Source of the DNA: a virus
DNA length: 44,450 nt
Direction: 5' to 3' (one strand)
Virus genome (UHGV): UHGV-0157893
The notes below the pieces were generated by a model that was not told the origin of the DNA, ran no database searches, and worked only from the letters and a program-made list of their open reading frames with translations. Numbering within the stretch: the stretch's first letter is position 1; every line of letters begins with the position of its first letter. This document shows positions 28,165 to 44,450 of this stretch, piece by piece. A program made the translations under genes and the position numbers.

Positions 28165-28226
28165 TTACAGTTTCGCATTGTTAGGTAATATTTTAATCTG
28201 TTTGTTTTCGACCAACAAATACGGCT

Positions 28227-28454: not shown

Positions 28455-28475
28455 ACCGCCCCCACAAATACGGCT

Positions 28476-29579: not shown

Positions 29580-29602
29580 TTGTTATTCTCCTTCGTAAGA
29601 AA

Positions 29603-30902: not shown

Positions 30903-30906
30903 GATG

Positions 30907-31134
30907 TTAACCCTCGACCACTTCCAGCCCGCGCCCCTTGTCGCCAACGAAGTCTCCCAGGCTGAACGTATACGACCATGCAGGATTAATGTAATGATCA
31001 TCAGCGCCAGCGGCAATTAGGTCAGCACCGTTAATCATGCAAGTGACATTATCACTATGAACGACGTCAACCACCTTACCAACAACCTGTTTCAATGACG
31101 GATAACCGTGATCGTGCAAGAATTTTACTTTCAT
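30907..31134 (-). CDS. Hypothetical protein
   Basis: ATG 31134 with GGGGGA RBS; TAATG overlap with upstream gene. Confidence 0.5.
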   Translation of the reverse strand: MKVKFLHDHGYPSLKQVVGKVVDVVHSDNVTCMINGADLIAAGADDHYINPAWSYTFSLGDFVGDKGRGLEVVEG

Positions 31135-31364
31135 TAATCTGTCCCCCAGCGCTCAATACTGATTAAAAAGTCCCGGATAGCGTGGCGCTCGTCGCGTGTT
31201 GGTTTGCGCTTCCGGTAAATTTTAAAATCGAACCATGCCTTTTCTTGCTCAAAATCCAGATCGTAAGCAAGCGCCTCAATGTAACCGCATTCGTGATACT
31301 GGTACGCCACGCCAGCACGAACAAAAAAGCGGGTTTTATCCCGCTTGTGTTCATAGATACGCAT
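31134..31364 (-). CDS. Hypothetical protein
   Basis: ATG 31364 with GGGGTGA RBS (longer alternative from 31409). Confidence 0.4.
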   Translation of the reverse strand: MRIYEHKRDKTRFFVRAGVAYQYHECGYIEALAYDLDFEQEKAWFDFKIYRKRKPTRDERHAIRDFLISIERWGTD

Positions 31365-31374
31365 ATTCACCCCA

Positions 31375-31605
31375 TTACGCAGTTGTGTAGCTGTCCACCA
31401 GCTTTTCATCTTTCATTCTGGCAAGCTGTGCGATGTTCATCGTGTAGCCGCCATCTGAGAAAAGCCATTCCGCAGCCTTGCGACGAAAAGCAATATCATC
31501 ATGGTTACGTGTCCATGTAGCGATCACAACGCGTTTCCCGTTAGTGGCGAACATAGACAATTCATTATCAACCACGTCAATAGCCTGCCAGATTTTTAGC
31601 TCCAT
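31375..31605 (-). CDS. Hypothetical protein
   Basis: ATG 31605 with GGGGA RBS; 76 aa. Confidence 0.5.
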   Translation of the reverse strand: MELKIWQAIDVVDNELSMFATNGKRVVIATWTRNHDDIAFRRKAAEWLFSDGGYTMNIAQLARMKDEKLVDSYTTA

Positions 31606-31961
31606 GATTTATCCCCGTAGATCTTGAATAGTTCACACGCTTCCTGATTTTCAAATATATTCATATGCAGGTCACGCAGGCGGCGCATTGTGCGGAATCG
31701 CGGCCTGAACTCCTGGCTACGTTTAATGTATTTGCCGCCAATTGAATAAATATGCCCGTATGAGTACCATCTATTACCTACCCATATTTCATATTCTTTG
31801 CCTTCGTAATTAAATTTTATCGTTAGCTTGCCAACCTCAACTATTAACCCTTTATCAATGATGTCATTAAGCATTTCGTCCCATTCTTTGAGGAATGGTT
31901 GTTGATAAAAACCAAAAAGAGTATTTACAGCGTGGCAAAGGTAATCAATGATTATTTGCAT
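31596..31961 (-). CDS. Hypothetical protein
   Basis: Track start GTG 31976; ATG 31961 immediately after upstream stop. Confidence 0.45.
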   Translation of the reverse strand: MQIIIDYLCHAVNTLFGFYQQPFLKEWDEMLNDIIDKGLIVEVGKLTIKFNYEGKEYEIWVGNRWYSYGHIYSIGGKYIKRSQEFRPRFRTMRRLRDLHMNIFENQEACELFKIYGDKSWS

Positions 31962-31962
31962 A

Positions 31963-32184
31963 TTAATTACACTCACTCATTATGTAGTAAACGTTATCGT
32001 AAGCTATATTATCAGCATCTTCCTGTGTTATATATCTGGCATCAAAAAAGAAATCAGCATCGTGCCATATATGAAAAATATATCTCGCAAATTGGCGGCG
32101 GTGGCGCTTGCTGCGTGGTAGTATGTCAAATTCCATTAACGCTTTATCATATGCTCTTATCATGCGCTTACGGTTACTTTTCAT
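31963..32184 (-). CDS. Hypothetical basic protein, tandem paralog A
   Basis: ATG 32184 with GGTGA RBS; MKSNRKRMIRAYDKAL...DNVYYIM; about 45% identical to the adjacent upstream gene. Confidence 0.55.
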   Translation of the reverse strand: MKSNRKRMIRAYDKALMEFDILPRSKRHRRQFARYIFHIWHDADFFFDARYITQEDADNIAYDNVYYIMSECN

Positions 32185-32188
32185 ATTG

Positions 32189-32404
32189 TCACCACATCAT
32201 ATAATAAACGTTATCGTTAGCCACTTCGTCGGCTTGTTCTTGTGTTAATAGCGGTGCGCTTTCCATAAAAGCATCAGAATAATGCCACTCATAAACAAGC
32301 ATACGCGCCCATTTGCGGCGCTGGCGTTTATTGTGTCGCAGATCATCAAAAGCCTTTAATGCTTTGTCGTACGCCCTTACAAGGCGCTTGCGGTTACTTT
32401 TCAT
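32189..32404 (-). CDS. Hypothetical basic protein, tandem paralog B
   Basis: ATG 32404 with GAGGTG RBS; MKSNRKRLVRAYDKAL...DNVYYMMW. Confidence 0.55.
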   Translation of the reverse strand: MKSNRKRLVRAYDKALKAFDDLRHNKRQRRKWARMLVYEWHYSDAFMESAPLLTQEQADEVANDNVYYMMW

Positions 32405-32705
32405 TTTCACCTCTCAACATCCAATTTCTGTCACATTTAATTGCGAATACCTTAACAGGATCAGGGCCGAATAATGGATGAGTGATAGTTTTTACTTCGT
32501 ACCCAAAATAAGGAAGGTTAATAATCCTGTGTTTTTCGTGGTTGGCAGGGTATCCCCATTTAATAATCAGGCGTTCATATTCCCGCCCTTCCAGACGTTT
32601 ACGCCAATAGTCATTATAAAGCCGGTATTCCTCCACCTTCTTTCCAGTCCATATGGCGTGGAAATATTCCCCTTTCAGATTCAAATGCAGGTCTTTACTT
32701 GCCAT
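32394..32705 (-). CDS. Putative ASCH-like domain protein
   Basis: ATG 32705; LHLNLKGEYFHAIWTGKKVEEYR resembles ASCH/DUF3850 N-terminal motif (from memory, not searched). Confidence 0.4.
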   Translation of the reverse strand: MASKDLHLNLKGEYFHAIWTGKKVEEYRLYNDYWRKRLEGREYERLIIKWGYPANHEKHRIINLPYFGYEVKTITHPLFGPDPVKVFAIKCDRNWMLRGENEK

Positions 32706-32964
32706 CGCTATGATCCTGTAAACAGTCGTTATAGCCTTCAATGTATCCGGTTAATCCGGTGTTACTCACTGACCATTCAGCCGAACGGCGCTTGATGGCT
32801 TCGTCCATCGTGATTTCGCCACCCGGCCCGCCAGGCTCAATATATTTTTTTAAATCCCTTGCTATCCACGCCCTCAATTGTTGTGTATCACGGCACAACC
32901 GCGCGGATAATGTCAGGTCATTAACCAGCTTTGCAAATAGATGTTCTTTTAGTTTAGGCTTCAT
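32695..32964 (-). CDS. Hypothetical protein
   Basis: ATG 32964/32967 with GGGGTGA RBS. Confidence 0.45.
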   Translation of the reverse strand: MKPKLKEHLFAKLVNDLTLSARLCRDTQQLRAWIARDLKKYIEPGGPGGEITMDEAIKRRSAEWSVSNTGLTGYIEGYNDCLQDHSDGK

Positions 32965-33154
32965 CATCGTCACCCCGCTTGTAAATTTTGACAGGCTTAA
33001 TAGGGATGGCTGGCAATTCGCCTTCATTTAACGCGCTTGCCATACCCAATATTAAACGCGCTTCCGCGCCAGTGACTTTCTTACACCATGCGCCGCCTGT
33101 TTTATCTTCAAATAAGATAACGGCAAACTGATCGTTTATTTCCAGCTTATCCAT
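32954..33154 (-). CDS. Hypothetical protein coupled to Q
   Basis: ATG 33154 with GGGGTGA RBS; TAATG overlap with Q stop. Confidence 0.5.
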   Translation of the reverse strand: MDKLEINDQFAVILFEDKTGGAWCKKVTGAEARLILGMASALNEGELPAIPIKPVKIYKRGDDDEA

Positions 33155-33876
33155 TATTCACCCCGTGTCACTCGTTTGATTTCACTTTCCGCGCGGCCCT
33201 CTTCTTTGAATAGCTCCGCTATGGCGTCTTCATAGAAAACCCGGTATTTTTTCCACCAGGTTGATCGGCTTACCGGAAAAACAAGCTGATTAACGGCCTG
33301 ACGCACAAGATCTACGGGGAAACGCGAGTACCCGCGCCCGCCGCAATGCTGGCACGTTTTGAACACTGGCATTTCCGCCGCTTCGCTGGCTGCTTTATCC
33401 GGTACTTCGCCACGGCCCTTGCATTGTTTACAATGATTGAGAACCTTCCCATGCCCCTTGCATTTTTTGCAAAGGTGTTTTTCTCCGTATTCGTCAAACG
33501 TAAATTTATATCCGCCGCACTCCATACAAGTTTTTTCCGTCGCGGCACTCTGGCAATAATCCCGAAACGCGAAAACGGCAACAAGAATAATGAGATCATT
33601 GCGTTTAGCCTCGTCCAGTTCCATAACGTATTCATAATCTTTTGCCATAGCCTTTAAACGCTCTATAAGCAAAACTACGGCCTTATGTTTTTCGGCTTGT
33701 GATAGTTCCATCTTTCCCAGAAAAGCGCTATAACCAAGCTCTACGCGCGATTGCGCCATACCAGCGGCAGTTAGCGCATCCGTAGTATTAAGCGCATCCG
33801 GGGACGTGCCCCGGCTTTCATCTGACAAACGCGGTGATTTTGGGAAGTGGAATTTAAGAATAGATTCCAAATTCAT
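33154..33876 (-). CDS. Q: Late gene antiterminator Q (phage 82 / phi80 type)
   Basis: ATG 33876 with GGGGGT RBS; N-terminus MNLESILKFHFPKSPRLSDESRG matches the remembered phage 82 Q start; multiple CxxC zinc-finger pairs. Confidence 0.8.
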   Translation of the reverse strand: MNLESILKFHFPKSPRLSDESRGTSPDALNTTDALTAAGMAQSRVELGYSAFLGKMELSQAEKHKAVVLLIERLKAMAKDYEYVMELDEAKRNDLIILVAVFAFRDYCQSAATEKTCMECGGYKFTFDEYGEKHLCKKCKGHGKVLNHCKQCKGRGEVPDKAASEAAEMPVFKTCQHCGGRGYSRFPVDLVRQAVNQLVFPVSRSTWWKKYRVFYEDAIAELFKEEGRAESEIKRVTRGE

Positions 33877-34058
33877 TATTTACCCCCGTAACGTGCAACC
33901 AGTCTTTTGCGATCAGATATTGATTGCACTAGCTTTCTTTCAAACTCTTTCAGTGCAAGTAATTCTCGCATGTGAAAAGCCTGAATTTGTCGGACTGTGG
34001 CTAAATCACGCTCGTCGCGCTGAATATCTATTTGCAGATCTTTAATTTCGTTTTTCAT
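33876..34058 (-). CDS. Hypothetical small coiled-coil protein
   Basis: ATG 34058 with GGTGG RBS (track start GTG 34070); between rusA and Q. Confidence 0.45.
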   Translation of the reverse strand: MKNEIKDLQIDIQRDERDLATVRQIQAFHMRELLALKEFERKLVQSISDRKRLVARYGGK

Positions 34059-34060
34059 TG

Positions 34061-34462
34061 TTACCACCACATATTAGTCAAGTATTCGTTAATATCCGGT
34101 AACAGGTCGCCGCGTTCGCGTACCTTGATAAACAATCGCCCTCTTTTTACCTTCCGGCAGCGGACAAATTTCATTGCGTCAACCTGGCTATCATCAGCCC
34201 AAAAACCGGAATAAGTTATAGCGTCAAATAATGCCTTCCCTACATTGTCAATATCGCGGCGTCTGTTATCTGGCGGTGCAATATACACCGTTATTGATAG
34301 CCTACACTTAAGATTAATTTTCAGATTAAGCAGTTTTATAATGTCTTTTACCTGCTCCCTGTATTCCTTACCTTCCTTGCTTATATAGTGGAAACCGCGC
34401 GAATGCCGGTAATATTTATTGTTCGATGGCGGGTAAGGCAGGCTAAAAGTATATTCATTCAT
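34061..34462 (-). CDS. rusA: Holliday junction resolvase RusA
   Basis: ATG 34462 (ATGA overlap with ninG stop); 133 aa; PPSNNKYY and DIDNVGKALFDA are RusA-type motifs. Confidence 0.8.
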   Translation of the reverse strand: MNEYTFSLPYPPSNNKYYRHSRGFHYISKEGKEYREQVKDIIKLLNLKINLKCRLSITVYIAPPDNRRRDIDNVGKALFDAITYSGFWADDSQVDAMKFVRCRKVKRGRLFIKVRERGDLLPDINEYLTNMWW

Positions 34463-35064
34463 GCTGCCTTTCTCCTTAAGGCGTCCAATTTAGCCTGATA
34501 GACTTTTATGATCTCCTTGCATTCTTCGATCGCCCATTTATGAGTTTCGTTGTTGTTCTCCAGCGCTTCCACCCTGGCAAGGCCAATTTTCCTAATCAGC
34601 GCTGGGCGATATGCTTCTATGTTGCCATCTAATGTCTGGTTGCAGTGCCTGCATTGTTTGTGGCAATTATCCTCGTTAAAACGAAGGTGCCCGGCGGCGG
34701 CAACCGTTCTATAGTGTCCGGCATCTGCTCCGCATTGTTCGTAATAGTAAGTCCCGCATGATATGCACGGCTGACCCGCGTCACGTTCGCGGATATAGGC
34801 ATTAAATACCGCTTGTGCCTGCTTCAACCAATAACTACGCGGATTTAACTGCTTCCGCTTCCGGTTGCGTTCTTCCCGCTGGCTATCACGGCGTTTCTTC
34901 CGTTCCATAGCCTTCATAGCCTTCTCACGGTCGCGGCATAGCTGATCAAACTTCAGCTCTTCCAGACACTCATCACTGCACCACGTTTGATTGTGATATT
35001 TAGGCTCAAAAAAAACGCCGCAGCACTTGCAACGGCGTCTTATTGGTTTTTTAGGGTTCTGCAT
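34459..35064 (-). CDS. ninG: NinG / Rap-like recombination protein
   Basis: ATG 35064 with GGGGTGG RBS; aligns by eye with lambda NinG (RRRCK, PRSYWLKQAQ, PCISCGT, DAGHYRT, RFNE.N.HKQC). Confidence 0.8.
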   Translation of the reverse strand: MQNPKKPIRRRCKCCGVFFEPKYHNQTWCSDECLEELKFDQLCRDREKAMKAMERKKRRDSQREERNRKRKQLNPRSYWLKQAQAVFNAYIRERDAGQPCISCGTYYYEQCGADAGHYRTVAAAGHLRFNEDNCHKQCRHCNQTLDGNIEAYRPALIRKIGLARVEALENNNETHKWAIEECKEIIKVYQAKLDALRRKAA

Positions 35065-35078
35065 AAAAACCACCCCTA

Positions 35079-35255
35079 TTATTTTTGATTCTCTGTTTCG
35101 TTCAGCCTTTCGGTGTGTCCGGCCCTTAGCCAATGATCTAAGCATTCGTTGCACTCGTTACAGCCTCCTTTCTTTGTGCTGCATACATTGCACATTGCAC
35201 GCATGACGCTTTCTCGTTCATAGTCGTCATGCCATTGGTAATTATCAAAAGACAT
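35079..35255 (-). CDS. ninF: NinF-like small Cys-rich protein
   Basis: ATG 35255 with AGGGAGGGAG RBS; 58 aa with CxxC...CxxC pattern; upstream of ninG. Confidence 0.5.
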   Translation of the reverse strand: MSFDNYQWHDDYERESVMRAMCNVCSTKKGGCNECNECLDHWLRAGHTERLNETENQK

Positions 35256-35376
35256 AATGCTCCCTCCCTTTAAGGTGATTTCTACGCATTTCAGCGCTGC
35301 CGGATTTTTAAAGAGCATTTCGTTTGCTTGAAGTATACAAAATGGATACACGTAAACAAGACGAAAAGCGCCATTA

Positions 35377-35392
35377 TGTGACCTGTATCACA
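35377..35392. promoter_or_regulatory. Perfect TGTGA-N6-TCACA palindrome (CRP-consensus-like) in 160-bp intergenic region
   Basis: tgtgacctgtatcaca at 35377-35392, flanked by inverted copies of the GTATACAAAATGG / CCATTTTGTAAAC motif. Confidence 0.4.
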
Positions 35393-35414
35393 CAATGACG
35401 CCATTTTGTAAACT

Positions 35415-36179
35415 TCAGTCCGGTAAAACGCGGTTGAGCGTAGTACGATTGATGGCCCGGTCGTTAGCCAGGAATACAGCACGGGCAAAGCCACGCGGCG
35501 TTAGTGAGCGGATCATCTTAGTGCGTTTCGACTTTCCTCCTAACTTAGCGTGCTGCTTACTGTCTTCCCATTCATCAGGCATTGGCACAGGCAGGAATAG
35601 CGGCTGATTAAATCCATTCCCGCACCAGATACAAGTTTTCTTCGTGTATGCGTCGCGGTCGGCGATGTATTCCGGGAAGGCAGGATGTTTGTCATCTTCA
35701 GGCAGGTAGCCACCGTAAGCGCACGGGTTGAAGATAAAATCCGGCTTACGCCATAACGTTGACAGTGCGCCAACCGGATTTTCCACCATCCACGGGACGT
35801 GATACATGTCAGCCAGCGTTTCTACCAGTTTTGCGTTATATGCCGCCTTCACCTGGAAGTCAGGATCTTTTTCACGCTTGCTGGCAAACCAACGAGCGCC
35901 GGACACGGCTAGATGGTCGCATGGCGGGAAGGCCAGAATAATGTCAGGATCTGGATAAACAGACAAATCAGGGGAGAACATCACCAGGAAATGGCTGTCA
36001 ATCCATACGTTAACGTATTCAATATTCGGATGAATGATTTTTACGCCTTCATAGTCGCCGTGGTTAGCGCCGTCATAGTTGAAGCAATAACACTTATAGC
36101 CAGCGTCAGCCCAATCTTTAACGGCGTACCCGCTGCCGTCGTACAGCGACCACACCACCCAATTTTTAAGCCCACTCAT
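35415..36179 (-). CDS. Putative DNA (cytosine-5) methyltransferase-like protein
   Basis: ATG 36179 with GAGGG RBS; SLYDGSGYA (motif I-like), FPPCDHLAVSGARW (PC motif IV-like), MVENPVGAL (ENV motif VI-like); short for a C5-MTase, so tentative. Confidence 0.4.
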   Translation of the reverse strand: MSGLKNWVVWSLYDGSGYAVKDWADAGYKCYCFNYDGANHGDYEGVKIIHPNIEYVNVWIDSHFLVMFSPDLSVYPDPDIILAFPPCDHLAVSGARWFASKREKDPDFQVKAAYNAKLVETLADMYHVPWMVENPVGALSTLWRKPDFIFNPCAYGGYLPEDDKHPAFPEYIADRDAYTKKTCIWCGNGFNQPLFLPVPMPDEWEDSKQHAKLGGKSKRTKMIRSLTPRGFARAVFLANDRAINRTTLNRVLPD

Positions 36180-36679
36180 TTTCTGCCCTCAAACGTAAAA
36201 TAGCGGCGCATGATGATAGTGATCACCGTTACCGCTGCCATTTTTGAGATGAATTGCATAGCTGATATTTCCGGCATAAATGCCATAAACGATAGCGTGG
36301 GAAAAATTAACGCATCTCCAATGGCTGAAGCTATATTTGCAGGCCAGCGTTTGGAATCGAAATCACCAGGTAAAACCCGGTAAACGCCGCCAGATATAAG
36401 CGCACCGGAAACAACCGCAACGAATGACGCGACCGCCACCATTCCGGCATCGTAGTTTATCAGCACCGTGATTGCGCCAGCGGCTGCGCACGTTGTAGCC
36501 GACCATTTCAGGCCGCCGTCATATAACAGAAAGTCGCGGATCATCATATTGACACACACTGCGGCTACCGTGGTGATCGGAATTACCCACGGGCCGCAAT
36601 GGTTAACAATAAGGTTGATGATCACGAAAACGGCGACATAAACGCAGGCCAGTAACCTGTCAATTGTCACCTTTTTCAT
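36176..36679 (-). CDS. Integral membrane protein (about 5 TM helices)
   Basis: ATG 36679 with AGAGGGA RBS (track start TTG 36709); hydrophobic throughout. Confidence 0.5.
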   Translation of the reverse strand: MKKVTIDRLLACVYVAVFVIINLIVNHCGPWVIPITTVAAVCVNMMIRDFLLYDGGLKWSATTCAAAGAITVLINYDAGMVAVASFVAVVSGALISGGVYRVLPGDFDSKRWPANIASAIGDALIFPTLSFMAFMPEISAMQFISKMAAVTVITIIMRRYFTFEGRK

Positions 36680-37145
36680 TTTGGTTATCCCTCTTCCGAC
36701 TGAAGTCAAAATTCAAATCAAGCGAATCAGTAGTACAACGACATTGAGGGTTAAGCATTGAAGGAGGCAAGCCCTTACAGCTTGTTATTGCTGCATCATT
36801 TATTATTCCATCATTAATATTGGCGGCAGTGAACTGTTTTTTCTTCCGTTCTTCCTCCTGATCGTTTAATATCTGCTCCGCTTTTAGTGCGCTGTAGCTA
36901 ATCAAGTCAACCAAAGTGTCAGTAGGATCGCTTTCATTAACTAAAATGGCCTCTAAACGCGCCTCCTTGAGACAAATTAATAGATCCCATACATCAAGCG
37001 GGGTTAAATTTGTCCCCTTCTTAGCGTTGTATATAGTGGCTATTTTTGGCGCTGATTTTTCTTCTTTTCTGTCGTAACCGTTTTGTTTACCTCTTTGCTC
37101 TATTGTTTCCGCTGCAAGTCGTAATAAATCTGCTGCATTAGTCAT
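36660..37145 (-). CDS. Hypothetical protein
   Basis: ATG 37145 with AGAGGTG RBS; overlaps Dam stop by 8 nt. Confidence 0.5.
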   Translation of the reverse strand: MTNAADLLRLAAETIEQRGKQNGYDRKEEKSAPKIATIYNAKKGTNLTPLDVWDLLICLKEARLEAILVNESDPTDTLVDLISYSALKAEQILNDQEEERKKKQFTAANINDGIINDAAITSCKGLPPSMLNPQCRCTTDSLDLNFDFSRKRDNQNEKGDN

Positions 37146-37677
37146 TATCTGCACCTCTTGCATATAGCTCTTTACGTGTTATCTGCGTGAAAATACATTC
37201 ATGTCTGCACCGTGGATGCCAGATCAAAAACAAGCTCCCTTTATTGTTTCCGCTTACTGGCTTACCAGTCGCAGCATTGATAAACGCCAGCCGCCCGCGC
37301 GTGATTAATCGGCACTCATTTGCCGTCTCAACGCCGTTCATAAACCAGCTAACAGAAACGTCAGCGGGCAATAACATTACGCAACCGATGTGATTTCGTT
37401 GATGTTCGAGCGCTGCTTTATCAACGAATGGACCTGGGTTTGAATATGGTGGATTCATCCATACATATTCGCCAGGCATTGCCACCGCTCCCCACGGATA
37501 AGTAAGCGCGTCCATTTCTTCAGTTATATACCGAGGAACGAGCGCGTTTTCCCTGTTTGCCGCCACATCTGCGACAAATTCGAACTCGCGATCCATTCCT
37601 CTAAAAACGGGTTTTGGCGTTTGCCATAAGTCTTTTATTTCTTTCGGCGTATGGCTGCCGCCGTAATCACTTTTCAT
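37138..37677 (-). CDS. dam: Phage-type DNA N6-adenine methyltransferase (Dam-like)
   Basis: ATG 37677 with AAGGGGG RBS; WMNPPYS (NPPY motif IV); 179 aa. Confidence 0.75.
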   Translation of the reverse strand: MKSDYGGSHTPKEIKDLWQTPKPVFRGMDREFEFVADVAANRENALVPRYITEEMDALTYPWGAVAMPGEYVWMNPPYSNPGPFVDKAALEHQRNHIGCVMLLPADVSVSWFMNGVETANECRLITRGRLAFINAATGKPVSGNNKGSLFLIWHPRCRHECIFTQITRKELYARGADND

Positions 37678-37686
37678 TACGCCCCC

Positions 37687-37920
37687 TTAGAAATAATCCT
37701 GTTTCGTTCCCCAACGGTTGTTTAAATACCCCACCAACCACACAAAGCGCTCAATGCTGATTAGTGGGGCGACTTTGCGATAATGCTTATCTAATATCAT
37801 CCGCGTGGCTTTATCGCTGTAGCCGTTTTTCTCTACCTCCGCTTTGCAGGCCGAAAGCGCGGCGCGGGCGGCAGTCTTTACGGCGTTAAATTGCGGCTCT
37901 GACATATTGAATAAGGCCAT
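37687..37920 (-). CDS. Hypothetical protein
   Basis: ATG 37920 with GGTGA RBS (track ORF extended upstream in-frame). Confidence 0.45.
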   Translation of the reverse strand: MALFNMSEPQFNAVKTAARAALSACKAEVEKNGYSDKATRMILDKHYRKVAPLISIERFVWLVGYLNNRWGTKQDYF

Positions 37921-37924
37921 AGGA

Positions 37925-38161
37925 TCACCATGTGTCAGTCCAATCCGGCGCGGCAGTCCAGCAAAAACCAATGAATGCGCTAACAGCCAATAAAGCGCGG
38001 GCTGCAAAAAGAATATTCCCAATGTCGTTAAATTCAGGAAGCGACCACGTAATAAACATAGCCCCCAGCATAATAACACCGATAACAGTCATGGCCGCCA
38101 GGAAAACAAAAAGCGTAGCCAAAAGCCACGCCCCCAACCAGTTAAAAAAGCTCTTAAGCAT
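37925..38161 (-). CDS. Small membrane protein (two TM helices)
   Basis: ATG 38161 with GAGGA RBS; track start TTG 38176. Confidence 0.45.
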   Translation of the reverse strand: MLKSFFNWLGAWLLATLFVFLAAMTVIGVIMLGAMFITWSLPEFNDIGNILFAARALLAVSAFIGFCWTAAPDWTDTW

Positions 38162-38162
38162 T

Positions 38163-38366
38163 TTAAACGTCCTCAATTACCCCGCCTTTCACGCGCTCTT
38201 TAATATCCCATACGTGAGGCTTGCATATTTCCTGATAATAGTGATCCGGCCTGCTGCCGAAATACCATTTGCCATCCATATAAAAATAAACGCCAGAATA
38301 ATTTCCTGGCGCTGCCTTTGTTGCTGCTTCTGGAATTTTCCATTCCATGTAATGTTTAAATTTCAT
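38163..38366 (-). CDS. Hypothetical protein
   Basis: ATG 38366; 67 aa; no clear RBS. Confidence 0.4.
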   Translation of the reverse strand: MKFKHYMEWKIPEAATKAAPGNYSGVYFYMDGKWYFGSRPDHYYQEICKPHVWDIKERVKGGVIEDV

Positions 38367-38550
38367 GAGTTTTTAAATAACCCCTTCTGAATGCTTTGAT
38401 GTAAATTCCTAGTCGCCTTATATGTTGAACGCCATCAATAAGACGTATTAAATAAATCGCTCCTTTTGCGTCAGATACAAATCTACACCCGAAACCAATG
38501 CCAACTAATTTTAGGCTATCAGGTATTCGATAATCAGTTTCTTGTTCCAT
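38356..38550 (-). CDS. Hypothetical protein
   Basis: ATG 38550 with GAGGT RBS. Confidence 0.5.
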   Translation of the reverse strand: MEQETDYRIPDSLKLVGIGFGCRFVSDAKGAIYLIRLIDGVQHIRRLGIYIKAFRRGYLKTHEI

Positions 38551-38556
38551 ACATTA

Positions 38557-38646
38557 CCTCATATGGTATTCAATAAACCACCTGATAAACAGGCATAAGG
38601 CAATAAAACCCCAGCAACAGCACATATAAAACAATGTGTCGTCCAT
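38557..38646 (-). CDS. Possible tiny hydrophobic, Cys-rich ORF (29 aa)
   Basis: ATG 38646 right after upstream stop; MDDTLFYMCCCWGFIALCLFIRWFIEYHM; not in ORF track (below cutoff). Confidence 0.25.
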
Positions 38647-38648
38647 AA

Positions 38649-38867
38649 TTAAGCCTCAATAACACCGTAATCAAACGTGCCTAAATACCGTTCGATACTT
38701 ACAACCTCAATACCATCAATGCACCGTTTCCACACAGACACCCGGCTTTCATTTTCCCGGAAGTGCATATTAGAAAGCACTTCATCGGCTGGATAGCCTT
38801 TCCCGGCGACGTAGGCATCATGGCCTACGCCACCCTCAACGCAATAAAGCATGTATTCGCGGGCCAT
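38649..38867 (-). CDS. Hypothetical protein
   Basis: ATG 38867 with GGAGGA RBS; 72 aa. Confidence 0.5.
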   Translation of the reverse strand: MAREYMLYCVEGGVGHDAYVAGKGYPADEVLSNMHFRENESRVSVWKRCIDGIEVVSIERYLGTFDYGVIEA

Positions 38868-38966
38868 CTTGTTTTCCTCCGTGCCGTAAACCTTTTGATT
38901 TCGGTTTACAAAACGGATACGCGATCACAACACAAAATGTATATTTATGTGATCGCAATCACGCTG

Positions 38967-39587
38967 TTAATGCAGTACACGTTTTTCCGGTTCAGGCATT
39001 GGCTGTGAGTTTTTCCGTGCATCATTAAGCACCGCAATAGCCGCCTGTACACCTAGATCATTTGCACGCATATCATTGCCGACCATTTCAACGTAAAGCA
39101 ATGGCATGAAAAATTTTATTTCTTCCTCTTTGTGGCCTTCATCAATACATTTCTGCATCACCTTAACTTCAAAGAGTTTTTTCATCATGCCACGCATAGA
39201 ATACAGCGCAATGCTTCCCATACGTTTTTCATCAAGCGGGAAGATAACAGCGCTTCCGAACGCAAGCGGGTCAATATCTTCCGGCACTGGTACGCGCCCA
39301 TATTCCTCTTCCATGCGTTTTACGAAAGCAAGACAGAAGACATAGCGAGCTACCGATGTTTTTTCTTCCGCACTTAAAGACACATAATCGCGGATGTTTG
39401 CATCCATCACAATATCAACAATCTGTAACGCCAGATTCAAATCAGCGTCATACTTGCCAGCTTCCATATCTTTCAATACTTCGTGATAATCTTTAATTTC
39501 TACTTCATGAAAACTTGCGTCTTCAGTGTAGCGAGTGATTAACATGCCTTCGCTGCCGAGTGAATAAGCCGTTTTGATGTCGTTCAT
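38967..39587 (-). CDS. Hypothetical acidic protein
   Basis: ATG 39587 with AAGGA RBS; 206 aa. Confidence 0.5.
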   Translation of the reverse strand: MNDIKTAYSLGSEGMLITRYTEDASFHEVEIKDYHEVLKDMEAGKYDADLNLALQIVDIVMDANIRDYVSLSAEEKTSVARYVFCLAFVKRMEEEYGRVPVPEDIDPLAFGSAVIFPLDEKRMGSIALYSMRGMMKKLFEVKVMQKCIDEGHKEEEIKFFMPLLYVEMVGNDMRANDLGVQAAIAVLNDARKNSQPMPEPEKRVLH

Positions 39588-39599
39588 GATATTTATCCT

Positions 39600-39932
39600 T
39601 TATAGTGGATGATGCCATTTCATTTCAGTTTCTGGGTTGAACGGGTTTCCTTCACTTGAAAGGAATAAATCACGCGCCCGTTTTAGCTCTTCCTGGCTTA
39701 TTTCTATTTCATCAATCTGACCGAACGATCCAGGCATCATCCGTTTTAAATCAGATAGCGGGCGCATAAGGCCGCAACCGCGTAACAGCATATCGACCGC
39801 GAATTGTCGCCGCCCGGCGGCGTCATTAAAGCGCCGTGCCCAGGGAACAACCACGATCCGGCGTTCGAATTCAATAAATAGTGATAGCTTGTTTGTTTCG
39901 CTATCATATGCTTTATGGAATTTAATTTTCAT
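39600..39932 (-). CDS. Hypothetical protein
   Basis: ATG 39932 with GAGGTG RBS; 110 aa. Confidence 0.5.
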   Translation of the reverse strand: MKIKFHKAYDSETNKLSLFIEFERRIVVVPWARRFNDAAGRRQFAVDMLLRGCGLMRPLSDLKRMMPGSFGQIDEIEISQEELKRARDLFLSSEGNPFNPETEMKWHHPL

Positions 39933-40113
39933 TTAACACCTCGACATATTGCTCAAGATGCCATTTACCCACCTCGTCATCTTCTTCATCAAATAATGTT
40001 ACTTGACCCACAGGCCCGAAAGAAAAGGCAGCGACAATAAATTTATAGCCATACCACGTGCGGATCTTTTCGCCGCCTTTCAGGTCTTTAACTTTCACTA
40101 ATTTTATAGCCAT
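39922..40113 (-). CDS. Hypothetical protein
   Basis: ATG 40113; 63 aa. Confidence 0.4.
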   Translation of the reverse strand: MAIKLVKVKDLKGGEKIRTWYGYKFIVAAFSFGPVGQVTLFDEEDDEVGKWHLEQYVEVLNEN

Positions 40114-40376
40114 ACGCCAAACATCCCATTCAGTCCGGCGAACAATTTCCGCCAGTGGTCTTCAACATAATCCCGGAACGGCTTAACGCGAACATTGCGG
40201 GCCTTTAGTTCAATCTCATCAAAGTAGCGTGGCTCTATGATTTCCCCGTCCAGATATTTAACCAATAGCGGGCGCTCAAGATCGTTGCACATCTTGTTCA
40301 GTACAACCAATCCAGGGTCATCACGATATTCAGGCAATACGACAAGATCACCAGCCTTTGCATCCCACGTTTTCAT
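40104..40376 (-). CDS. Hypothetical protein
   Basis: ATG 40376 overlapping the stop of the upstream tiny ORF (TGATG); the track's TTG-start 118-aa version is judged an over-extension. Confidence 0.4.
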   Translation of the reverse strand: MKTWDAKAGDLVVLPEYRDDPGLVVLNKMCNDLERPLLVKYLDGEIIEPRYFDEIELKARNVRVKPFRDYVEDHWRKLFAGLNGMFGVWL

Positions 40377-40495
40377 CACAGCAACCCACTGAAAATAAAG
40401 TTGACCACCGCAGCAAGTGCGCCACAAAAAACAACCACAAACAGGAAGCAAATAATGCAAAACGCGACCGTCACAATATCCTTACCGACTTTCAT
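40376..40495 (-). CDS. Tiny hydrophobic ORF (39 aa)
   Basis: ATG 40495 with GAGGT RBS; MKVGKDIVTVAFCIICFLFVVVFCGALAAVVNFIFSGLL. Confidence 0.35.
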   Translation of the reverse strand: MKVGKDIVTVAFCIICFLFVVVFCGALAAVVNFIFSGLL

Positions 40496-40503
40496 GATTA
40501 ACC

Positions 40504-40617
40504 TCACATAGTAGTAATCAGCTTGATGATCGCCACCGTAATATAAAGCGATACGCTAAGATATAGCGCCGCGACAGCCAACGCCGCAGCCAATGCGGCA
40601 ATTTTTGCAAAGCTCAT
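40504..40617 (-). CDS. Tiny hydrophobic ORF (37 aa)
   Basis: ATGA overlap with the stop of 40614..40838; MSFAKIAALAAALAVAALYLSVSLYITVAIIKLITTY. Confidence 0.35.
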   Translation of the reverse strand: MSFAKIAALAAALAVAALYLSVSLYITVAIIKLITTM

Positions 40618-40838
40618 TTGCCACCCTCCGCAATTAACTTATCAAGCCATTTGTTATTAGCCAGCCGTTCGGCATCTTCGCCGAATGATTTACGGTCGCT
40701 TAATTCCTGGCGAGTAGGCTTAGGCCATTTATCGTGCCACCCCGCAGACGTTTCGAACTCATACAGGCCGCCGTCAAAACAAATAAGCTCATCACGACCG
40801 TCAGGAATTTCCTTGTCTACTTCTTTTTCTTCAATCAT
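40614..40838 (-). CDS. Hypothetical protein
   Basis: ATG 40838 with GAGGTG RBS; 74 aa. Confidence 0.5.
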   Translation of the reverse strand: MIEEKEVDKEIPDGRDELICFDGGLYEFETSAGWHDKWPKPTRQELSDRKSFGEDAERLANNKWLDKLIAEGGK

Positions 40839-40850
40839 GATAACACCTCA

Positions 40851-41144
40851 TTAATCATTAATGACCTGGCCCATACGCCCGCGATATTTGCGCATACGTG
40901 GATCGACATATTCAGGCCAGTGCATATCCGGTTTTCTTTGCAGCGGATAAAAACTTGCCTGCCAGTTGTCGAACCATATTTGTTTTGCGTACAGGTCACT
41001 AAATCTTTTTGCCATCCGTTCCGCTGCCGTGCCGCATAAAAAAAGCCCATGATCTATTTGATCACGGGCTTCTTTTAGAACTTGCTCTTTTGTTCGCGGA
41101 ATCGGCGGCGCATCAAGATAGCGCGTAGATCCTGCTTTTGCCAT
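40851..41144 (-). CDS. Hypothetical protein
   Basis: ATG 41144 (overlaps ssb 3' end by about 30 nt); start uncertain. Confidence 0.4.
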   Translation of the reverse strand: MAKAGSTRYLDAPPIPRTKEQVLKEARDQIDHGLFLCGTAAERMAKRFSDLYAKQIWFDNWQASFYPLQRKPDMHWPEYVDPRMRKYRGRMGQVIND

Positions 41145-41574
41145 ATTGTAACCCCATAGGAGCAAATGGGATGTCGTCATCGAAATCAGGAGGGACATCA
41201 TTCCCGTTATTATTTTGAGGCGGTGGCGCTTTCTGCTGCTGGCCTTGCTGCTGGCCTTGTTGGTTAACGTTCATGAATTCAAATTCGTTAACCGCCACTT
41301 CTACCGCCGTTCCCTTCGTGCCGTCGTTCCGGTCATATTGCCGAACATCCAGGCGACCGCTTACCACTATTTTTCCACCCTTGCGGATATGTGGCGCTAA
41401 TTTTTCCGCACGCTCACCAAATACCAGGCAAGTGACCCACATTGTCCGCTTATTATCGCCGTAGCCATTCGTTACAGCTAACGGAAAACTACCAATCGCT
41501 TTCCCGTTTTGTGTGTAGCGAACCTCCATATCATTACCGATATTCCCGCCCAGCGTGATTGAATTTAAACTCAT
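41113..41574 (-). CDS. ssb: Single-stranded DNA-binding protein
   Basis: ATG 41574 (TAATG overlap with erf); OB-fold-like N-terminus, Gln/Pro-rich linker, C-terminal acidic tail DFDDDIPF. Confidence 0.85.
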   Translation of the reverse strand: MSLNSITLGGNIGNDMEVRYTQNGKAIGSFPLAVTNGYGDNKRTMWVTCLVFGERAEKLAPHIRKGGKIVVSGRLDVRQYDRNDGTKGTAVEVAVNEFEFMNVNQQGQQQGQQQKAPPPQNNNGNDVPPDFDDDIPFAPMGLQYGKSRIYALS

Positions 41575-42218
41575 TAACCCATCTCCCCGTTAAGCTCTGC
41601 TACCCGGATGTCATAAACATCTTTTGCCTTGATTCGATGTTCCGATCCTTCCGGTAGTAATTTCCAGCATTTGCCAAATATTTCACGCAGCTTGTTAGCG
41701 TCCTGCGCTTTCGCTGCTGCATCACAGAAACGTGCTAATACTTCATCAGGATTTGGCGGCGCTTTCTGCTGCTGTGGTTGTTGTTTTGGTGGGTTTTTCT
41801 GCTGGCGAGGCTGCTGGCCTGTCTGCTTAGCGTATGCGTCAGTATCAGGATCTCGCGCATCATCAATGCAGAATAAACCGTTCAAAGCATATTTTCGCGC
41901 GTAACTTGATGTCGCACCTGTTAGCTGGCTTGCGTCCATTCCCTTCTTGCTTTCTTCTTCCCTGGCGTAAGCCGTTGCCGCTATTTCGTCTTCACCGTCG
42001 CTTAGCGTCGCCGTAGCTTTCACATAATAGCGATTGCCGATCAGGACAATTTCATCGCTTACAGTCAGCGTAATACTTTGAAGCAGTGGTTTAACCGCCT
42101 CTAAAATATCCTCCGCCGACCTGTAATTATATCCACCAAAATTATTACGCTGATTTTTCGGCGCGTTCAGCGTTTGCTGAACCGTCCATAGCTTTTTATG
42201 TAACTCTGTTTTCACCAT
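41574..42218 (-). CDS. erf: Erf-family single-strand annealing recombinase
   Basis: ATG 42218 with GGGAG RBS; 214 aa; ERF-type N-terminal domain followed by Gln/Pro-rich region. Confidence 0.7.
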   Translation of the reverse strand: MVKTELHKKLWTVQQTLNAPKNQRNNFGGYNYRSAEDILEAVKPLLQSITLTVSDEIVLIGNRYYVKATATLSDGEDEIAATAYAREEESKKGMDASQLTGATSSYARKYALNGLFCIDDARDPDTDAYAKQTGQQPRQQKNPPKQQPQQQKAPPNPDEVLARFCDAAAKAQDANKLREIFGKCWKLLPEGSEHRIKAKDVYDIRVAELNGEMG

Positions 42219-42334
42219 TTAATCTCCCGTGCTGTTAACACTATGTATAAGGCTTTATTCGCGGCGCTCCACATTTCGGCATCGTGAAGCATTTCCGCTA
42301 CTGCCAGTTTGAATTGAAGCGCCTGAATAACCAT
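42212..42334 (-). CDS. Possible small ORF (40 aa) upstream of erf
   Basis: ATG 42334 with GGAG RBS; overlaps the erf start by 7 nt. Confidence 0.3.
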   Translation of the reverse strand: MVIQALQFKLAVAEMLHDAEMWSAANKALYIVLTAREIKW

Positions 42335-42364
42335 AATGTCATCTCCGGATGTTTACATTTTGTA

Positions 42365-42655
42365 TTAATGGTAGCGGACTTTATCCAGGGGTTTTTCCCC
42401 TAAATGGCGTGGTTGCGTTGCGTGGTAGTAGCTGCCGCTTTCATTTTCCGTATACCATTTTACTGATCCTTTGCGACGTTCTTTAATGCTATTTGGTTTG
42501 CATCTTTCCTCGTTTGCAAATCGAATAGCTTTATCCACATTGTCTGTTTTATTGATTGCAGGTGATGATTTTCTTTCGTTTTCTCTTTTTATCCTTCTGC
42601 GTTCCCTGGCATTCATTTTGCTATCACATTTACCATATATAATTGTAACGCTCAT
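42365..42655 (-). CDS. N: N-type transcription antiterminator (P22 gene 24-like)
   Basis: ATG 42655 with GGAGA RBS; MSVTIIYGKCDSKMNARERRRIKR resembles the P22 gp24 N-terminus and arginine-rich motif; first gene after the leftward promoter. Confidence 0.6.
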   Translation of the reverse strand: MSVTIIYGKCDSKMNARERRRIKRENERKSSPAINKTDNVDKAIRFANEERCKPNSIKERRKGSVKWYTENESGSYYHATQPRHLGEKPLDKVRYH

Positions 42656-42711
42656 AATCTGATCTCCGTATATCCTTGATGATACTTAATAAAAAATCAT
42701 CTTCGTTAATT

Positions 42712-42750
42712 GCCGCACTTCCAGCGGCTGACCAGATTGTTAATGAGCGG
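42712..42750 (-). promoter_or_regulatory. nutL-like site (boxA-like CGCTCATTA plus boxB-like hairpin)
   Basis: Minus strand: CGCTCATTAA, 11 nt, GCCGC-TGGAAGT-GCGGC; lies between the PL-like promoter and N. Confidence 0.4.
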
Positions 42751-43003
42751 CTTAACATCTTTCAACTAATCCCGCAATCATCGCCGTTCCCGGCGTGACC
42801 TTGCTCACTCCAAGCAAGCTGACTCGTCGCCTTGCGTGCGGTTTCGTGGGGGATGTAACGCTTTAAACACCCCATGCGCCTTGTTATCAGTGCCGCTTTC
42901 GGTCCCCCATCGGGGAGTTACTCCACGGTTGACAAGGTGTTAAGCCTGATTTTTAAAGTGCCAGGAAGTTGCTTTTGTTACCTGCGCCCTTCCTTTGACT
43001 CGC

Positions 43004-43032
43004 AATATACGCCCCGTAAAACATCGAGTCAA
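43004..43032 (-). promoter_or_regulatory. Strong sigma70-type leftward promoter (PL candidate) within an inverted repeat
   Basis: Minus strand TTGACT, 17 nt, TATATT; overlapped by inverted repeat TTGACTCG...CGAGTCAA (42995-43032) and abutted by the CCATTTTGTATAC motif (43034-43046). Confidence 0.55.
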
Positions 43033-43124
43033 TCCATTTTGTATACTTTTTTAAAATATTTTATATGCCATTGATATTTAAATAATAAATAACGTTTTCT
43101 GTTTACGTTTTGGTGTTTTCCAGG

Positions 43125-43150
43125 CAAAGAAAAGCCGCCATTCGGCGGCT
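43125..43150 (-). terminator. Terminator after the repressor gene
   Basis: Minus strand GCCGCC-gaat-GGCGGC then TTTTCTTTG, directly 3' of the cI-like stop. Confidence 0.6.
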
Positions 43151-43155
43151 AATGT

Positions 43156-43803
43156 TTATGGCAGGTTTACGATCTTCGCATCAACCACCACGCCTATAAT
43201 TTTTGATTCTGGATTCATAGGGATTGGCGGATACAGCGGATTGAGCGAACGTAAAAGCCTTTGACCTCCATCAATAATCAACTGTTTAAACGTCGGTATC
43301 TGCCCTTCCTCAAGCTGGGCTATAACCAGTTTGCCGTCAATAGCTGGCGCGTGCGGGTCCACAAGTATCATCGTCCCCGCCGGGATGCTCAACCCCTGCG
43401 GCGCGTTCATTGATTCACCTTTGGCAACCAGCCAGTAACTGTCATCTGAACAAATAACGCTAGTCGTAACGTGTCGTAATGCTGAACGCCTTGCGTCATC
43501 CATATTGTTTACTGTGTCCTTCCAGTCAATAACCGGGTAACTACCTAAATCACGCGGCGGCACGGCCTGAAGTGTATTAGAAACAGAATCATCAATGACC
43601 ATACCATCATGTGTAACAGTGAACTGCCGACGACCAAGCTCTCGCATAATCCGCGCAATATCTTCAAGATTTGGCTCGCGGCGACCGTTCAGCCAGTGTG
43701 ACAGGCCGCCTTTAGTTATCCCCATGCGATCCGCTAGTGAATCCTGGCTCATGCCCTGCGCCCGCATGAGCTGCTTTGCTAAGTCATACCATTTTGTTTT
43801 CAT
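43156..43803 (-). CDS. cI: CI-like repressor (HTH_XRE plus S24 LexA-type peptidase)
   Basis: ATG 43803; HTH (QDSLADRMGITKGGLSHWLNGRR); C-terminal S24 domain with GESM (Ser) and a downstream Lys (KQL). Confidence 0.85.
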   Translation of the reverse strand: MKTKWYDLAKQLMRAQGMSQDSLADRMGITKGGLSHWLNGRREPNLEDIARIMRELGRRQFTVTHDGMVIDDSVSNTLQAVPPRDLGSYPVIDWKDTVNNMDDARRSALRHVTTSVICSDDSYWLVAKGESMNAPQGLSIPAGTMILVDPHAPAIDGKLVIAQLEEGQIPTFKQLIIDGGQRLLRSLNPLYPPIPMNPESKIIGVVVDAKIVNLP

Positions 43804-44108
43804 GTCGCTACCCTATAACCTCAAAAAGTTTGATGCAAGTCACAAAACGTGTATTTTAAGCCTTGATCTTAAAATTCCATTTTGTAAACTTGCAGACAAG
43901 GTAAGGCCATACTTGCAAAGACGCAAGGAAAAAGATAACGGAAGGCACAAAAAGGCACTTACCTTAAGCTCTTTAAAAATCCGGTGTCGCTGCGAAGCGA
44001 AAAACAAATATCACGCAACGGCGGGATCTGTTGAGCGGTCAGTCACTGCTATCTAATGCTAATGGGATGCCCGCCCGCGCGTTCACTCTAACCATAGGAG
44101 AAAACACG

Positions 44109-44366
44109 ATGAGTATGCACATGATGAATGAAGTATGGAACGTAAAACTTAACAGCCCGATTCAAAAACTTGTCTTAATGGCTCTGGCTGAAAAGGCAGA
44201 TAACAAAGGACGGGTACATGATGCATCACGCAAAGAAGTAGCCGCAATGTGTGAACTTCCTGTTCATACGGTACATGATGCCTTCGCCGCGTTAATGGAT
44301 AAAGGATTTGTTTGTCGTCTTGATGCATTCAGTGATGTCTATGTAGTGATGTTGCCGGAGGGATGA
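44109..44366 (+). CDS. Winged-helix DNA-binding protein (HTH_36-like), first gene of rightward operon
   Basis: ATG 44109 with AGGAG RBS 8 nt upstream (track frame starts at TTG 44031); SPIQKLVLMALAEKADNKGRVHDASRKEVAAMCELPVHTVHDAFAALMDKGFV matches the HTH_36 pattern. Confidence 0.55.
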   Translation: MSMHMMNEVWNVKLNSPIQKLVLMALAEKADNKGRVHDASRKEVAAMCELPVHTVHDAFAALMDKGFVCRLDAFSDVYVVMLPEG

Positions 44367-44369
44367 TCT

Positions 44370-44450
44370 ATGAAGTGGTTTAAGCATGACAGCGATGCGA
44401 ACCGCGATGAAAAACTTCAAAACGTTTTGTTAGATTATGGCCTGGAAGGG
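44370..44450 (+). CDS. Replication initiation / replisome organizer protein, N-terminal fragment (runs off window)
   Basis: ATG 44370 with GGAGGG RBS; MKWFKHDSDANRDEKLQNVLLDYGLEG matches the conserved N-terminus of DUF4373 (Lin1244-like) phage replication proteins. Confidence 0.55.
   Translation, partial: MKWFKHDSDANRDEKLQNVLLDYGLEG

Follow-up and report, generated by a model that had tools for sequence, protein, structure and literature searches.

A promoter, nut site and N-like gene of the mEp021 phage group, with a 13-nt motif as a better operator candidate than the promoter-spanning inverted repeat

The antitermination system of coliphage mEp021 is the closest described counterpart of the locus analysed here. 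A paper on this phage group (PMC11893012, citing Valencia-Toxqui et al. 2023) reports that Gp17 has been shown experimentally to be an antiterminator resembling N of lambda and that it acts on three nut sites: nutL, between gp14 and gp15; nutR1, upstream of gp17; and nutR2, after the cytosine methyltransferase gene. Antitermination in the mEp021 group depends on Nus factors, arginines 17, 19, 20 and 24 of Gp17 are conserved, and immunity is conferred by the repressor Rep021 (PMC11893012). The site in front of gp17 is called nutR1 and not nutL because the map of mEp021 is drawn in the opposite orientation, and "different operator sequences" are mentioned in the same paper but are not defined there (PMC11893012). 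Reference sequences for boxA are available from E. coli rrn operons, in which boxA together with its spacer reads ugcucuuuaacaauuua, and from lambda, with the boxA CGCUCUUA (PMC2724277).

The window, which is the whole stretch of 44,450 nt of viral DNA that was analysed (UHGV virus genome UHGV-0157893), contains a region that is 90-93% identical to coliphages of the mEp021 group (megablast), 99.6% identical to phage MagusPhagus and 100% identical to prophages in several E. coli genomes (blastn). The region very probably belongs to a temperate E. coli phage from the mEp021 (mEpimmI) group and represents the early-promoter, nut and N module of that phage. On the minus strand, the repressor gene is followed by a terminator, an A+T-rich stretch, the promoter, a leader of 254 nt, boxA, a hairpin and an ORF of 96 aa (Table 1). 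The mEp021 record lists the ORFs gp15 (repressor), gp16 (37 aa), gp17 and gp18, then erf and ssb, and the order repressor, terminator, promoter, leader with gp16, nut, gp17, kil-like ORF, erf and ssb is common to both phages. They also share an identical boxA-spacer-boxB, an antiterminator with 93% identity, and three nut sites. Their differences are at the strain level only and amount to about 7% DNA divergence, which includes the promoter spacer and one arm of an inverted repeat. Promoter, nut site and N-like gene are supported as real, and together they correspond to a known system that has been demonstrated experimentally in mEp021.

Table 1 Positions of the features of the early region and of the second leftward nut site in the window
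Feature	Position	Strand	Remarks
CI-like repressor gene	43156..43803	-	215 aa; orthologue of mEp021 Rep021 (gp15)
Intrinsic terminator after the repressor gene	43133..43150	-	7-bp G+C-rich stem followed by TTTTCTTTG
13-nt motif GTATACAAAATGG	43034..43046	-	ends 1 nt before the -35 hexamer; candidate operator or UP-like module
Sigma-70 early promoter of the N operon	43004..43032	-	-35 TTGACT at 43032..43027; 17-nt spacer; -10 TATATT at 43009..43004
Inverted repeat, left arm TTGACTCG	43032..43025	-	-35 hexamer plus 2 nt
Inverted repeat, right arm CGAGTCAA	42995..43002	-	covers the predicted start site; conservation limited to the TCAA core
Orphan boxA-like element boxA' GCACTTTAAAAATCAGG	42945..42961	-	42 nt after the -10 hexamer
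Extra leader, about 213 nt	42750..42960	-	absent from short-leader relatives; approximate boundaries
Annotated ORF gp16	42762..42875	-	37 aa; inside the extra leader
Leader hairpin CUUGCU-UGGAGUG-AGCAAG	42800..42818	-	AUCACU-UGGAUUG-AGUGGU in RM9245 and E21845
boxA of nutR1, CGCTCATTAACAA	42737..42749	-	one mismatch to rrn-type GCUCUUUAACAA; TGCTCTTTAACAA in relatives
boxB of nutR1	42712..42728	-	5-bp stem GCCGC/GCGGC; loop UGGAAGU, with one G in addition to the U-GNRA core
N-like antiterminator gene	42365..42655	-	96 aa; orthologue of mEp021 Gp17
nutR2	~35317..35284	-	boxA and hairpin paralogous to nutR1

As in lambda, the repressor gene is located upstream of the early promoter on the same strand, and its product is a true homologue of lambda CI. 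The protein contains an HTH_3 domain (E=1.5e-12) and a Peptidase_S24 domain (E=5.8e-19) as defined by Pfam, matches the lambda repressor 3BDN with E=1.4e-20, and carries the label repressor in the records of mEp021 and related phages. It shares 97% identity with the mEp021 repressor in its DNA-binding domain and likewise in its C-terminal domain, and the DNA-binding domains are at least 96% identical at every one of the more than 50 loci compared. The terminator behind the gene was found by a terminator scan and is annotated in the mEp021, mEp515 and mEp554 records. Its stem is invariant in the alignment of the relatives, and it shields the N promoter against transcripts of the repressor gene.

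The initial annotation described a near-consensus promoter, TTGACT-17 nt-TATATT, which lies downstream of this terminator, and the subsequent analysis bears it out, as it does every coordinate stated there. The two hexamers match the consensus at 10 of 12 positions, and the promoter is the top sigma-70 match in 42300-44450 and shares the top sigma-70 score within 26000-43200. Both across 13 aligned sequences and at more than 50 loci, the -35 hexamer reads TTGACT or TTGACA, the -10 hexamer reads TATATT (TATAGT in one case), and the distance between them is always 17 nt. Among the relatives, 8-9 of the 17 spacer positions vary and the hexamers are kept. Such comparisons indicate that the hexamers are under clear constraint; transcription is predicted to start at about 43000..42996 on the minus strand. 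Relatives with a short leader possess the same promoter only about 42 nt in front of boxA, an arrangement that connects promoter and nut site. The position of the repressor gene, immediately upstream and on the same strand, could nevertheless allow a PRM-type repressor transcript to read through into nutR1, so that the nut site would be reached without the predicted promoter. This is highly improbable in view of the strong and conserved terminator between the repressor gene and the nut site and the constraint on the hexamers; moreover, synthesis of N from a maintenance transcript would presumably clash with lysogeny.

Initiation at the predicted promoter would lead through the leader to boxA, which begins 254 nt after the -10 hexamer, close to the distance of about 250 nt proposed initially. 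The boxA sequence CGCTCATTAA occupies 42749..42740, and the match to the rrn consensus runs on to 42737 as CGCTCATTAACAA; the element also agrees with CGCUCUU(U)A, the boxA consensus of lambda-type antitermination. In the relatives, boxA and the start of the spacer read TGCTCTTTAACAAT, identical to the rrn sequence ugcucuuuaacaau (reference in PMC2724277), and the window's own boxA differs by a single change, U to A (CGCUCAUUAACAA). Judged by its sequence, boxA of the mEp021 group is of the rrn type. It is a full rrn-type element (...UUUAACAA in the relatives), which distinguishes it from the boxA of lambda, and what sets the locus apart from rrn antitermination, besides the U to A change, is the presence after boxA of a boxB hairpin and of an N-like protein encoded by the phage. 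The core GCTCWTTAA occurs five times in the window, as compared to 0.97 expected occurrences, and three of the five belong to nut sites. Sites composed of boxA and a short hairpin were found at 42749 (-), 35317 (-) and 43967 (+), and these positions match those of the published nutR1, nutR2 and nutL, respectively. The element studied here is equated with nutR1 by its location upstream of gp17, where it is the sole boxA accompanied by a hairpin; boxA, spacer and boxB are identical to those of coliphage mEp021.

The GCCGC-TGGAAGT-GCGGC hairpin that had been compared to boxB lies where it was proposed, separated from boxA by a spacer of 12 nt when counted from the 9-nt boxA CGCUCAUUA. The hairpin is predicted to be the minimum-energy structure, and taken alone it is thermodynamically ordinary (z = -0.8). 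Its identification is based on covariation. In an alignment of seven distinct nut sites, 96.7% of the cells are paired and three of the five pairs have changed on both sides; slid controls yielded at most one double-changed pair, and no shuffle reached the observed covariation score. Pairing is maintained in five stems, GCCGC/GCGGC, GCUAC/GUAGC, UCGC/GCGA, GCAC/GUGC and UGCAC/GUGCA, with GCGC/GCGU also listed among the stems of the paralogues and orthologues; the fifth variant was found in L057. Around these changing stems the loop core U-G-N-R-A is retained in the loops UGGAAGU, UGAAAU, UGAAAA and UGCGAA. The loop of nutR1 comprises 7 nt and the loops of the paralogous sites in the window comprise 6 nt; lambda, in contrast, has a 5-nt loop, GAAAA or GAAGA. 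The covarying stems identify the nutR1 hairpin as a real boxB.

The N-like ORF starts at 42655, 56 nt past the hairpin, where about 57 nt had been estimated. Its product belongs to PHROG 271, "anti-termination protein N-like" (E=1.3e-13), and the match to the Pfam family N_peptide (E=0.019) is below the cut-off of that family. Similarity to N of lambda is thus remote at the protein level, and there is no DNA similarity between the two loci. Identity to gp17 of mEp021 is 93%, an orthologue is annotated as N-like in phage MagusPhagus, and the family is narrow, with 31 clusters that are all at least 60% identical. An arginine-rich motif, NARERRRIKRENERK, extends over residues 15-29; in lambda N the corresponding motif begins at residue 1. 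R17, R20 and R24 are invariant in the alignment and R19 is nearly so. The alignment contains four types of arginine-rich motif, NARERRRIKRENERK, NARKRRRMKRAAEQD, NARTIRRMKRRAAEQS and NARERRRLKRAGKVK, each of which is accompanied by its own nutR1 boxB. The DNA of prophages of the RM9245 type ceases to resemble the window directly in front of boxB, at about 42730, an indication that boxB and N form a module. Whether a given motif type is specific for the nutR1 loop with which it is paired is doubtful, because one nutL, the boxB of which is essentially invariant in all loci, coexists with all motif types, four or five in number; real specificity differences between the motif types are therefore doubtful as well.

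The organization resembles that of the lambda PL-OL/nutL/N region, with an early promoter, boxA, spacer and boxB, and as the first gene N, which encodes an arginine-rich motif; the dependence of the mEp021 group on Nus factors (PMC11893012) is a further similarity. It differs from lambda in that there are three nut sites instead of two and that the 254-nt leader contains an inserted structured block. By analogy to lambda, antitermination would proceed as follows. In the absence of the repressor, host sigma-70 RNA polymerase would start at TTGACT-17-TATATT, as deduced from sequence and conservation, and would transcribe the leader and then the nut site, consisting of boxA CGCUCAUUAACAA, the 12-nt spacer and boxB GCCGC-UGGAAGU-GCGGC. 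The 96-aa N-like protein would bind to the boxB loop through its arginine-rich motif, and boxA would recruit the host factors NusB/NusE together with NusA and NusG. For mEp021, the Nus dependence and the activity of Gp17 are published (PMC11893012). Terminator-like hairpins are found downstream on the minus strand at 40590, 38313, 38135, 35402, 31346 and 28162; the termination-resistant polymerase would read through intrinsic terminators of the long minus-strand unit, for which those at about 40590, 38313, 38135 and 35402 are candidates, and nutR2 would follow as a second nut site on this long leftward unit. The earlier proposal that the minus-strand transcript is subject to N-dependent antitermination is well supported by a nut site identical to that of mEp021 and an ORF 93% identical to Gp17, and we regard it as correct in all likelihood.

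The part of the initial annotation that did not stand concerns the inverted repeat that brackets the core promoter and that had been considered a candidate operator. The repeat exists, and its two arms of 8 nt are perfect in the window. According to this proposal, the CI-like repressor would shut the promoter by binding to TTGACTCG-N22-CGAGTCAA. At least six of the eight symmetric positions are kept in all 13 sequences, and the TTGA...TCAA core also flanks a paralogous promoter at 9684-9720. However, perfect 8-bp inverted repeats with gaps of 3-30 nt are common; there are 49 in the window, which corresponds to about 0.55 per 500 nt or about one per 900 nt. TTGACTCG matches the window only twice, namely at the two arms (1.29 matches expected), and a search of the whole window revealed no copy at the repressor's own PR/PRM region. 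Both arms vary among relatives despite their nearly identical repressor DNA-binding domains. The last two nucleotides of the left arm are CG, CT, GG, AG, CC or TG, and the right arm, in which CGAG, CGAA, CGTA and CAAA occur, is represented by the variants CGAATCAA, CGAGGCAA, CGTATCAA and CAAATCAA. Symmetry among the 13 sequences (the window and 12 relatives) is 8/8 in four, 7/8 in five and 6/8 in four; it declines without compensating changes, and the outer positions vary freely. The half-site conservation expected of a lambda-type OL operator within an immunity group is not seen in the repeat. The half-sites are 30 bp apart, measured from centre to centre, which is atypical for a dimer of the lambda CI type, and tandem palindromic operators of 17 bp as in lambda are not recognisable at this locus.

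The sole constant part of the repeat, TTGA...TCAA, is otherwise explained, by the -35 hexamer on one side and the start region on the other, and the repeat is therefore not accepted as an operator. Most likely the -35 hexamer and the sequence at the start site give rise to it incidentally. A role as the operator is unlikely, although a minor contribution of the repeat is conceivable. The reading proposed at the outset is retained as regards promoter, nut site and N-like gene; the repeat as operator is given up.

A better operator candidate, on sequence grounds, is the 13-nt motif GTWTACAAAATGG. With up to one mismatch, 12 copies are present in the window (0.06 expected), none of which is located inside a long ORF; with up to two mismatches there are 23 copies (3.2 expected). 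Upstream of the -35 hexamer of the N promoter the motif is near-invariant in the relatives and occurs in more than 50 loci as GTATACAAAATGG or in a form ending in ATGT. A further copy, at 43889..43877, falls in the PR/PRM region between the repressor gene and gp14, where it is conserved. Copies border the reverse-strand gene islands, at 2291, 9732, 11327, 14306/14335 and 30151, and lie on both sides of the terminator that precedes nutR2 (35333-35345 and 35413..35401); another is located at 38904. The sequence TGTGATACAGGTCACA near 35385 makes up the loop region of a terminator hairpin of 16 bp, and a reading of it as a CRP site was rejected. Motif copies often occur in inverted pairs, and in mEp021 they are found at matching positions despite divergent flanks.

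The arrangement motif, 1 nt, -35 hexamer, 17 nt, -10 hexamer is adopted by three of the 12 copies and by one degenerate copy (binomial p about 1.7e-5), and all four are associated with good hexamers. The stretch 9670-9712, which has its promoter at 9684-9712 and carries two motif copies, is plainly paralogous to the N promoter and heads an island that holds a putative antirepressor in mEp021. A different arrangement is encountered at the PR-like promoter of the plus strand (TTGATC or TTGACC, 16 nt, TAAACT), where the reversed motif covers the spacer and the -10 hexamer; on the other strand, the motif is followed closely by a weak promoter of the repressor gene. Such an arrangement would be similar to that of OR2 of lambda. 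As a plain core promoter element the motif was rejected: a promoter in the fixed geometry accompanies no more than 3-4 of 13 copies, and the other copies are left unexplained.

Two functions of the motif have to be weighed. It may be an operator for the repressor or for another phage regulator and form a dispersed operator network. The large excess of intergenic copies, their matching positions in mEp021, the conservation at the N promoter and in the repressor/gp14 intergenic region, the OR2-like geometry deduced for the PR-like promoter, and the two copies at the paralogous promoter of the putative-antirepressor island are all consistent with such a function. On the other hand, the motif lacks the symmetry of typical CI operators, and at the N promoter it sits upstream of the -35 hexamer and not over the core promoter. 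No heteroimmune relatives, in which operator and repressor might be seen to co-vary, were found among the more than 50 loci, given the close similarity of their repressor DNA-binding domains. We consider an operator function a tentative possibility, less likely than not.

The motif may instead be a duplicated promoter module, such as a proximal subsite resembling an UP element and contacted by the alpha subunit of RNA polymerase, with the operators located elsewhere. The proximal UP subsite has the consensus AAAAAARNR, and ACAAAATG at -45..-38 fits seven of its nine positions; the recurrence of one promoter geometry in three copies and a degenerate fourth also agrees with a promoter module. 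Most copies, however, are without a promoter in that geometry, and copies also overlie a -10 hexamer in reverse orientation, lie at about +15 of the island transcript and flank a terminator. We hold this explanation to be similarly tentative and slightly less likely. The operator function has a precedent in mycobacteriophage L5, the "stoperators" of which are dispersed asymmetric repressor sites of 13 bp. The motif described here is likewise asymmetric, 13 nt in length and present in about 12 intergenic copies across the genome. It differs in that the repressor is of the lambda CI type, the sites are candidates only, and the copies often form inverted pairs instead of pointing in a single orientation.

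The leader between the promoter and boxA is the second feature that goes beyond the known module. Its length from the -10 hexamer to boxA is either 41-42 nt (short) or 254-257 nt (long), and the difference is accounted for by a block of about 213 nt that is absent from strain 190, strain PAR, mEp554, L012, L013 and others. Since both ends of the block are boxA-like, its boundaries are approximate. It starts right after boxA', which is 88% complementary to boxA of the plus-strand nutL and identical to GCTCTTTAAAAATCCGG at 15 of 17 positions (manual count); in the short-leader relatives the functional boxA is found at the same distance from the promoter as boxA'. The sequence of the block is nearly invariant, and the leader of 345 nt in which it lies forms a more stable fold than shuffled controls do (z = -3.37). 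A search of 42000-44450 with Rfam at a permissive threshold gave hits at chance level only, and leader block, nut site and N-like gene received none. In the leader hairpin, three pairs have changed on both sides and there is one wobble change (RNAalifold, pairs 189-207 to 195-201).

The annotated ORF gp16 lies within the block and has no Pfam or PHROG match. The only variation inside gp16 consists of the RNA-compensatory changes, and these alter its peptide according to our own translation; an RNA role of this segment is favoured over a protein-coding one. The block was also considered as a mobile element and rejected as such, with no hits in representative genomes and 31 carrier viral contigs that all belong to the mEp021 group, the only phage group in which it was found. 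The structured leader may act as a cis-regulator that tunes N expression or the loading of Nus factors.

The core finding is a re-identification of the mEp021 module and adds little beyond the correct annotation of this prophage or phage. The motif network and the structured leader are not described for the phage group in PMC11893012. That the GTWTACAAAATGG network controls every promoter region of the phage, or that the leader block tunes N expression or the loading of Nus factors, is a speculative proposition that we judge more likely to be wrong than right. An optional structured leader of about 213 nt between boxA-like repeats could affect N expression. The motif provides a concrete site at which to ask how the CI-like repressor controls the N promoter, a question for which the inverted repeat seems to be a false lead. 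If the motif copies are indeed repressor sites, they would constitute a stoperator-like network in a coliphage.

Twelve copies of a 13-nt motif, GTWTACAAAATGG, occur in the window at one mismatch or fewer, against 0.06 expected, a strong over-representation, and none of the 12 lies within a long ORF (see the table below). The copies are frequently paired in inverted orientation at a spacing of 16 nt, as at 14306/14335 and between the copy at 30151 and its partner. mEp021 also has copies of the motif, at positions corresponding to those in the window. The motif may represent a dispersed operator or a module of promoters.

The promoter of the N-like gene has a paralogue, the region of which includes a CRP-like TGTGA-N6-TCACG sequence and another full copy of the motif (9732-9744), directly 5' of a ribosome-binding site and an ATG at 9759. 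The island that corresponds to it in mEp021 (gp74..gp71) contains a putative antirepressor. In the region of nutR2, a boxA/boxB site, two inverted copies of the motif flank a 16-bp terminator hairpin that shows compensatory differences from TERM_4 of mEp021; 3' of the hairpin lies a weak promoter-like element, TTGTTT, 16 nt, TATACT. In the rightward control region, a reversed copy of the motif encloses the -10 of a PR-like promoter (TTGATC, 16 nt, TAAACT), the -35 of which reads TTGACC in the majority of relatives. The nutL site that follows is invariant across all relatives, irrespective of the type of their N motif. The rightward operon opens with a gene of 85 aa that matches O-like replication initiators in their N-terminal winged-helix part only (PHROG 4617, E=2.9e-22), and the interval from the repressor gene to the replication genes holds no obvious cro gene.

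Positions of the features in the window, with their order of elements
Feature	Strand	Position	Elements
13-nt motif	-	2291-2303, 14335-14347, 30151-30163, 35401-35413, 43034-43046, 43877-43889	
13-nt motif	+	9732-9744, 11327-11339, 11718-11730, 14306-14318, 35333-35345, 38904-38916	
N-promoter paralogue	+	9648-9760	CATACCAAAATGG, -35 TTGATC 9684-9689, 17 nt, -10 TATATT 9707-9712, TCAAACGGAAG
CRP-like sequence		9648-9663	
nutR2 region	-	35284-35413	TTGTTT/TATACT, then boxA TGCTCTTTAAAAATCCGG + boxB GCGC-UGAAAU-GCGU
Terminator hairpin		35402..35367	
40-aa ORF	-	42212-42334	
Predicted leader fold	-	42656-42740	
Leader insert	-	42750-42961	
gp16		42875..42762	
Hairpin in insert		42818..42800	
Orphan boxA-like element		42961..42945	
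Small ORFs of related phages	-, +	42630-42758 (-), 42874-43074 (+)	
Rightward control region	+	43840-44000	PR-like promoter, then nutL: AGCTCTTTAAAAATCCGG + UCGCU-GCGA-AGCGA
85-aa gene	+	44109-44366	

The leader of the N-like gene carries an insert of about 213 nt, which some relatives share and others lack. The insert starts with an orphan boxA-like element, is highly conserved and structured, and contains a hairpin with compensatory changes; the 37-aa ORF annotated within it, gp16, is probably non-coding. MagusPhagus CDS0120 and mEp515_21, small ORFs that the records of related phages place across the nut site and the promoter, are probably annotation artefacts. In the predicted fold of the leader, the nut spacer AAUCUGGUC pairs with GAUCAGAUU, directly 5' of the N-like start codon. 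This pairing, which is retained in close relatives only, could exert translational control of N, as in lambda. Directly 3' of the N-like gene, a 40-aa ORF weakly matches Kil of lambda (PF06301 in Pfam, with an E of 2.2e-4 that is below the cut-off; also PHROG 2055), and it occupies a place reminiscent of the one that kil has in the PL operon of that phage.

The N-like genes themselves are mosaic (proteins P0020 and L002:1721-2011; locus L057). P0020 combines an N-terminal arginine-rich motif of the RM9245 type with a C-terminal half of the window type. In prophages of the RM9245 type, DNA similarity to the window stops just 5' of boxB, so that boxB seems to travel jointly with the N motif, as a module.
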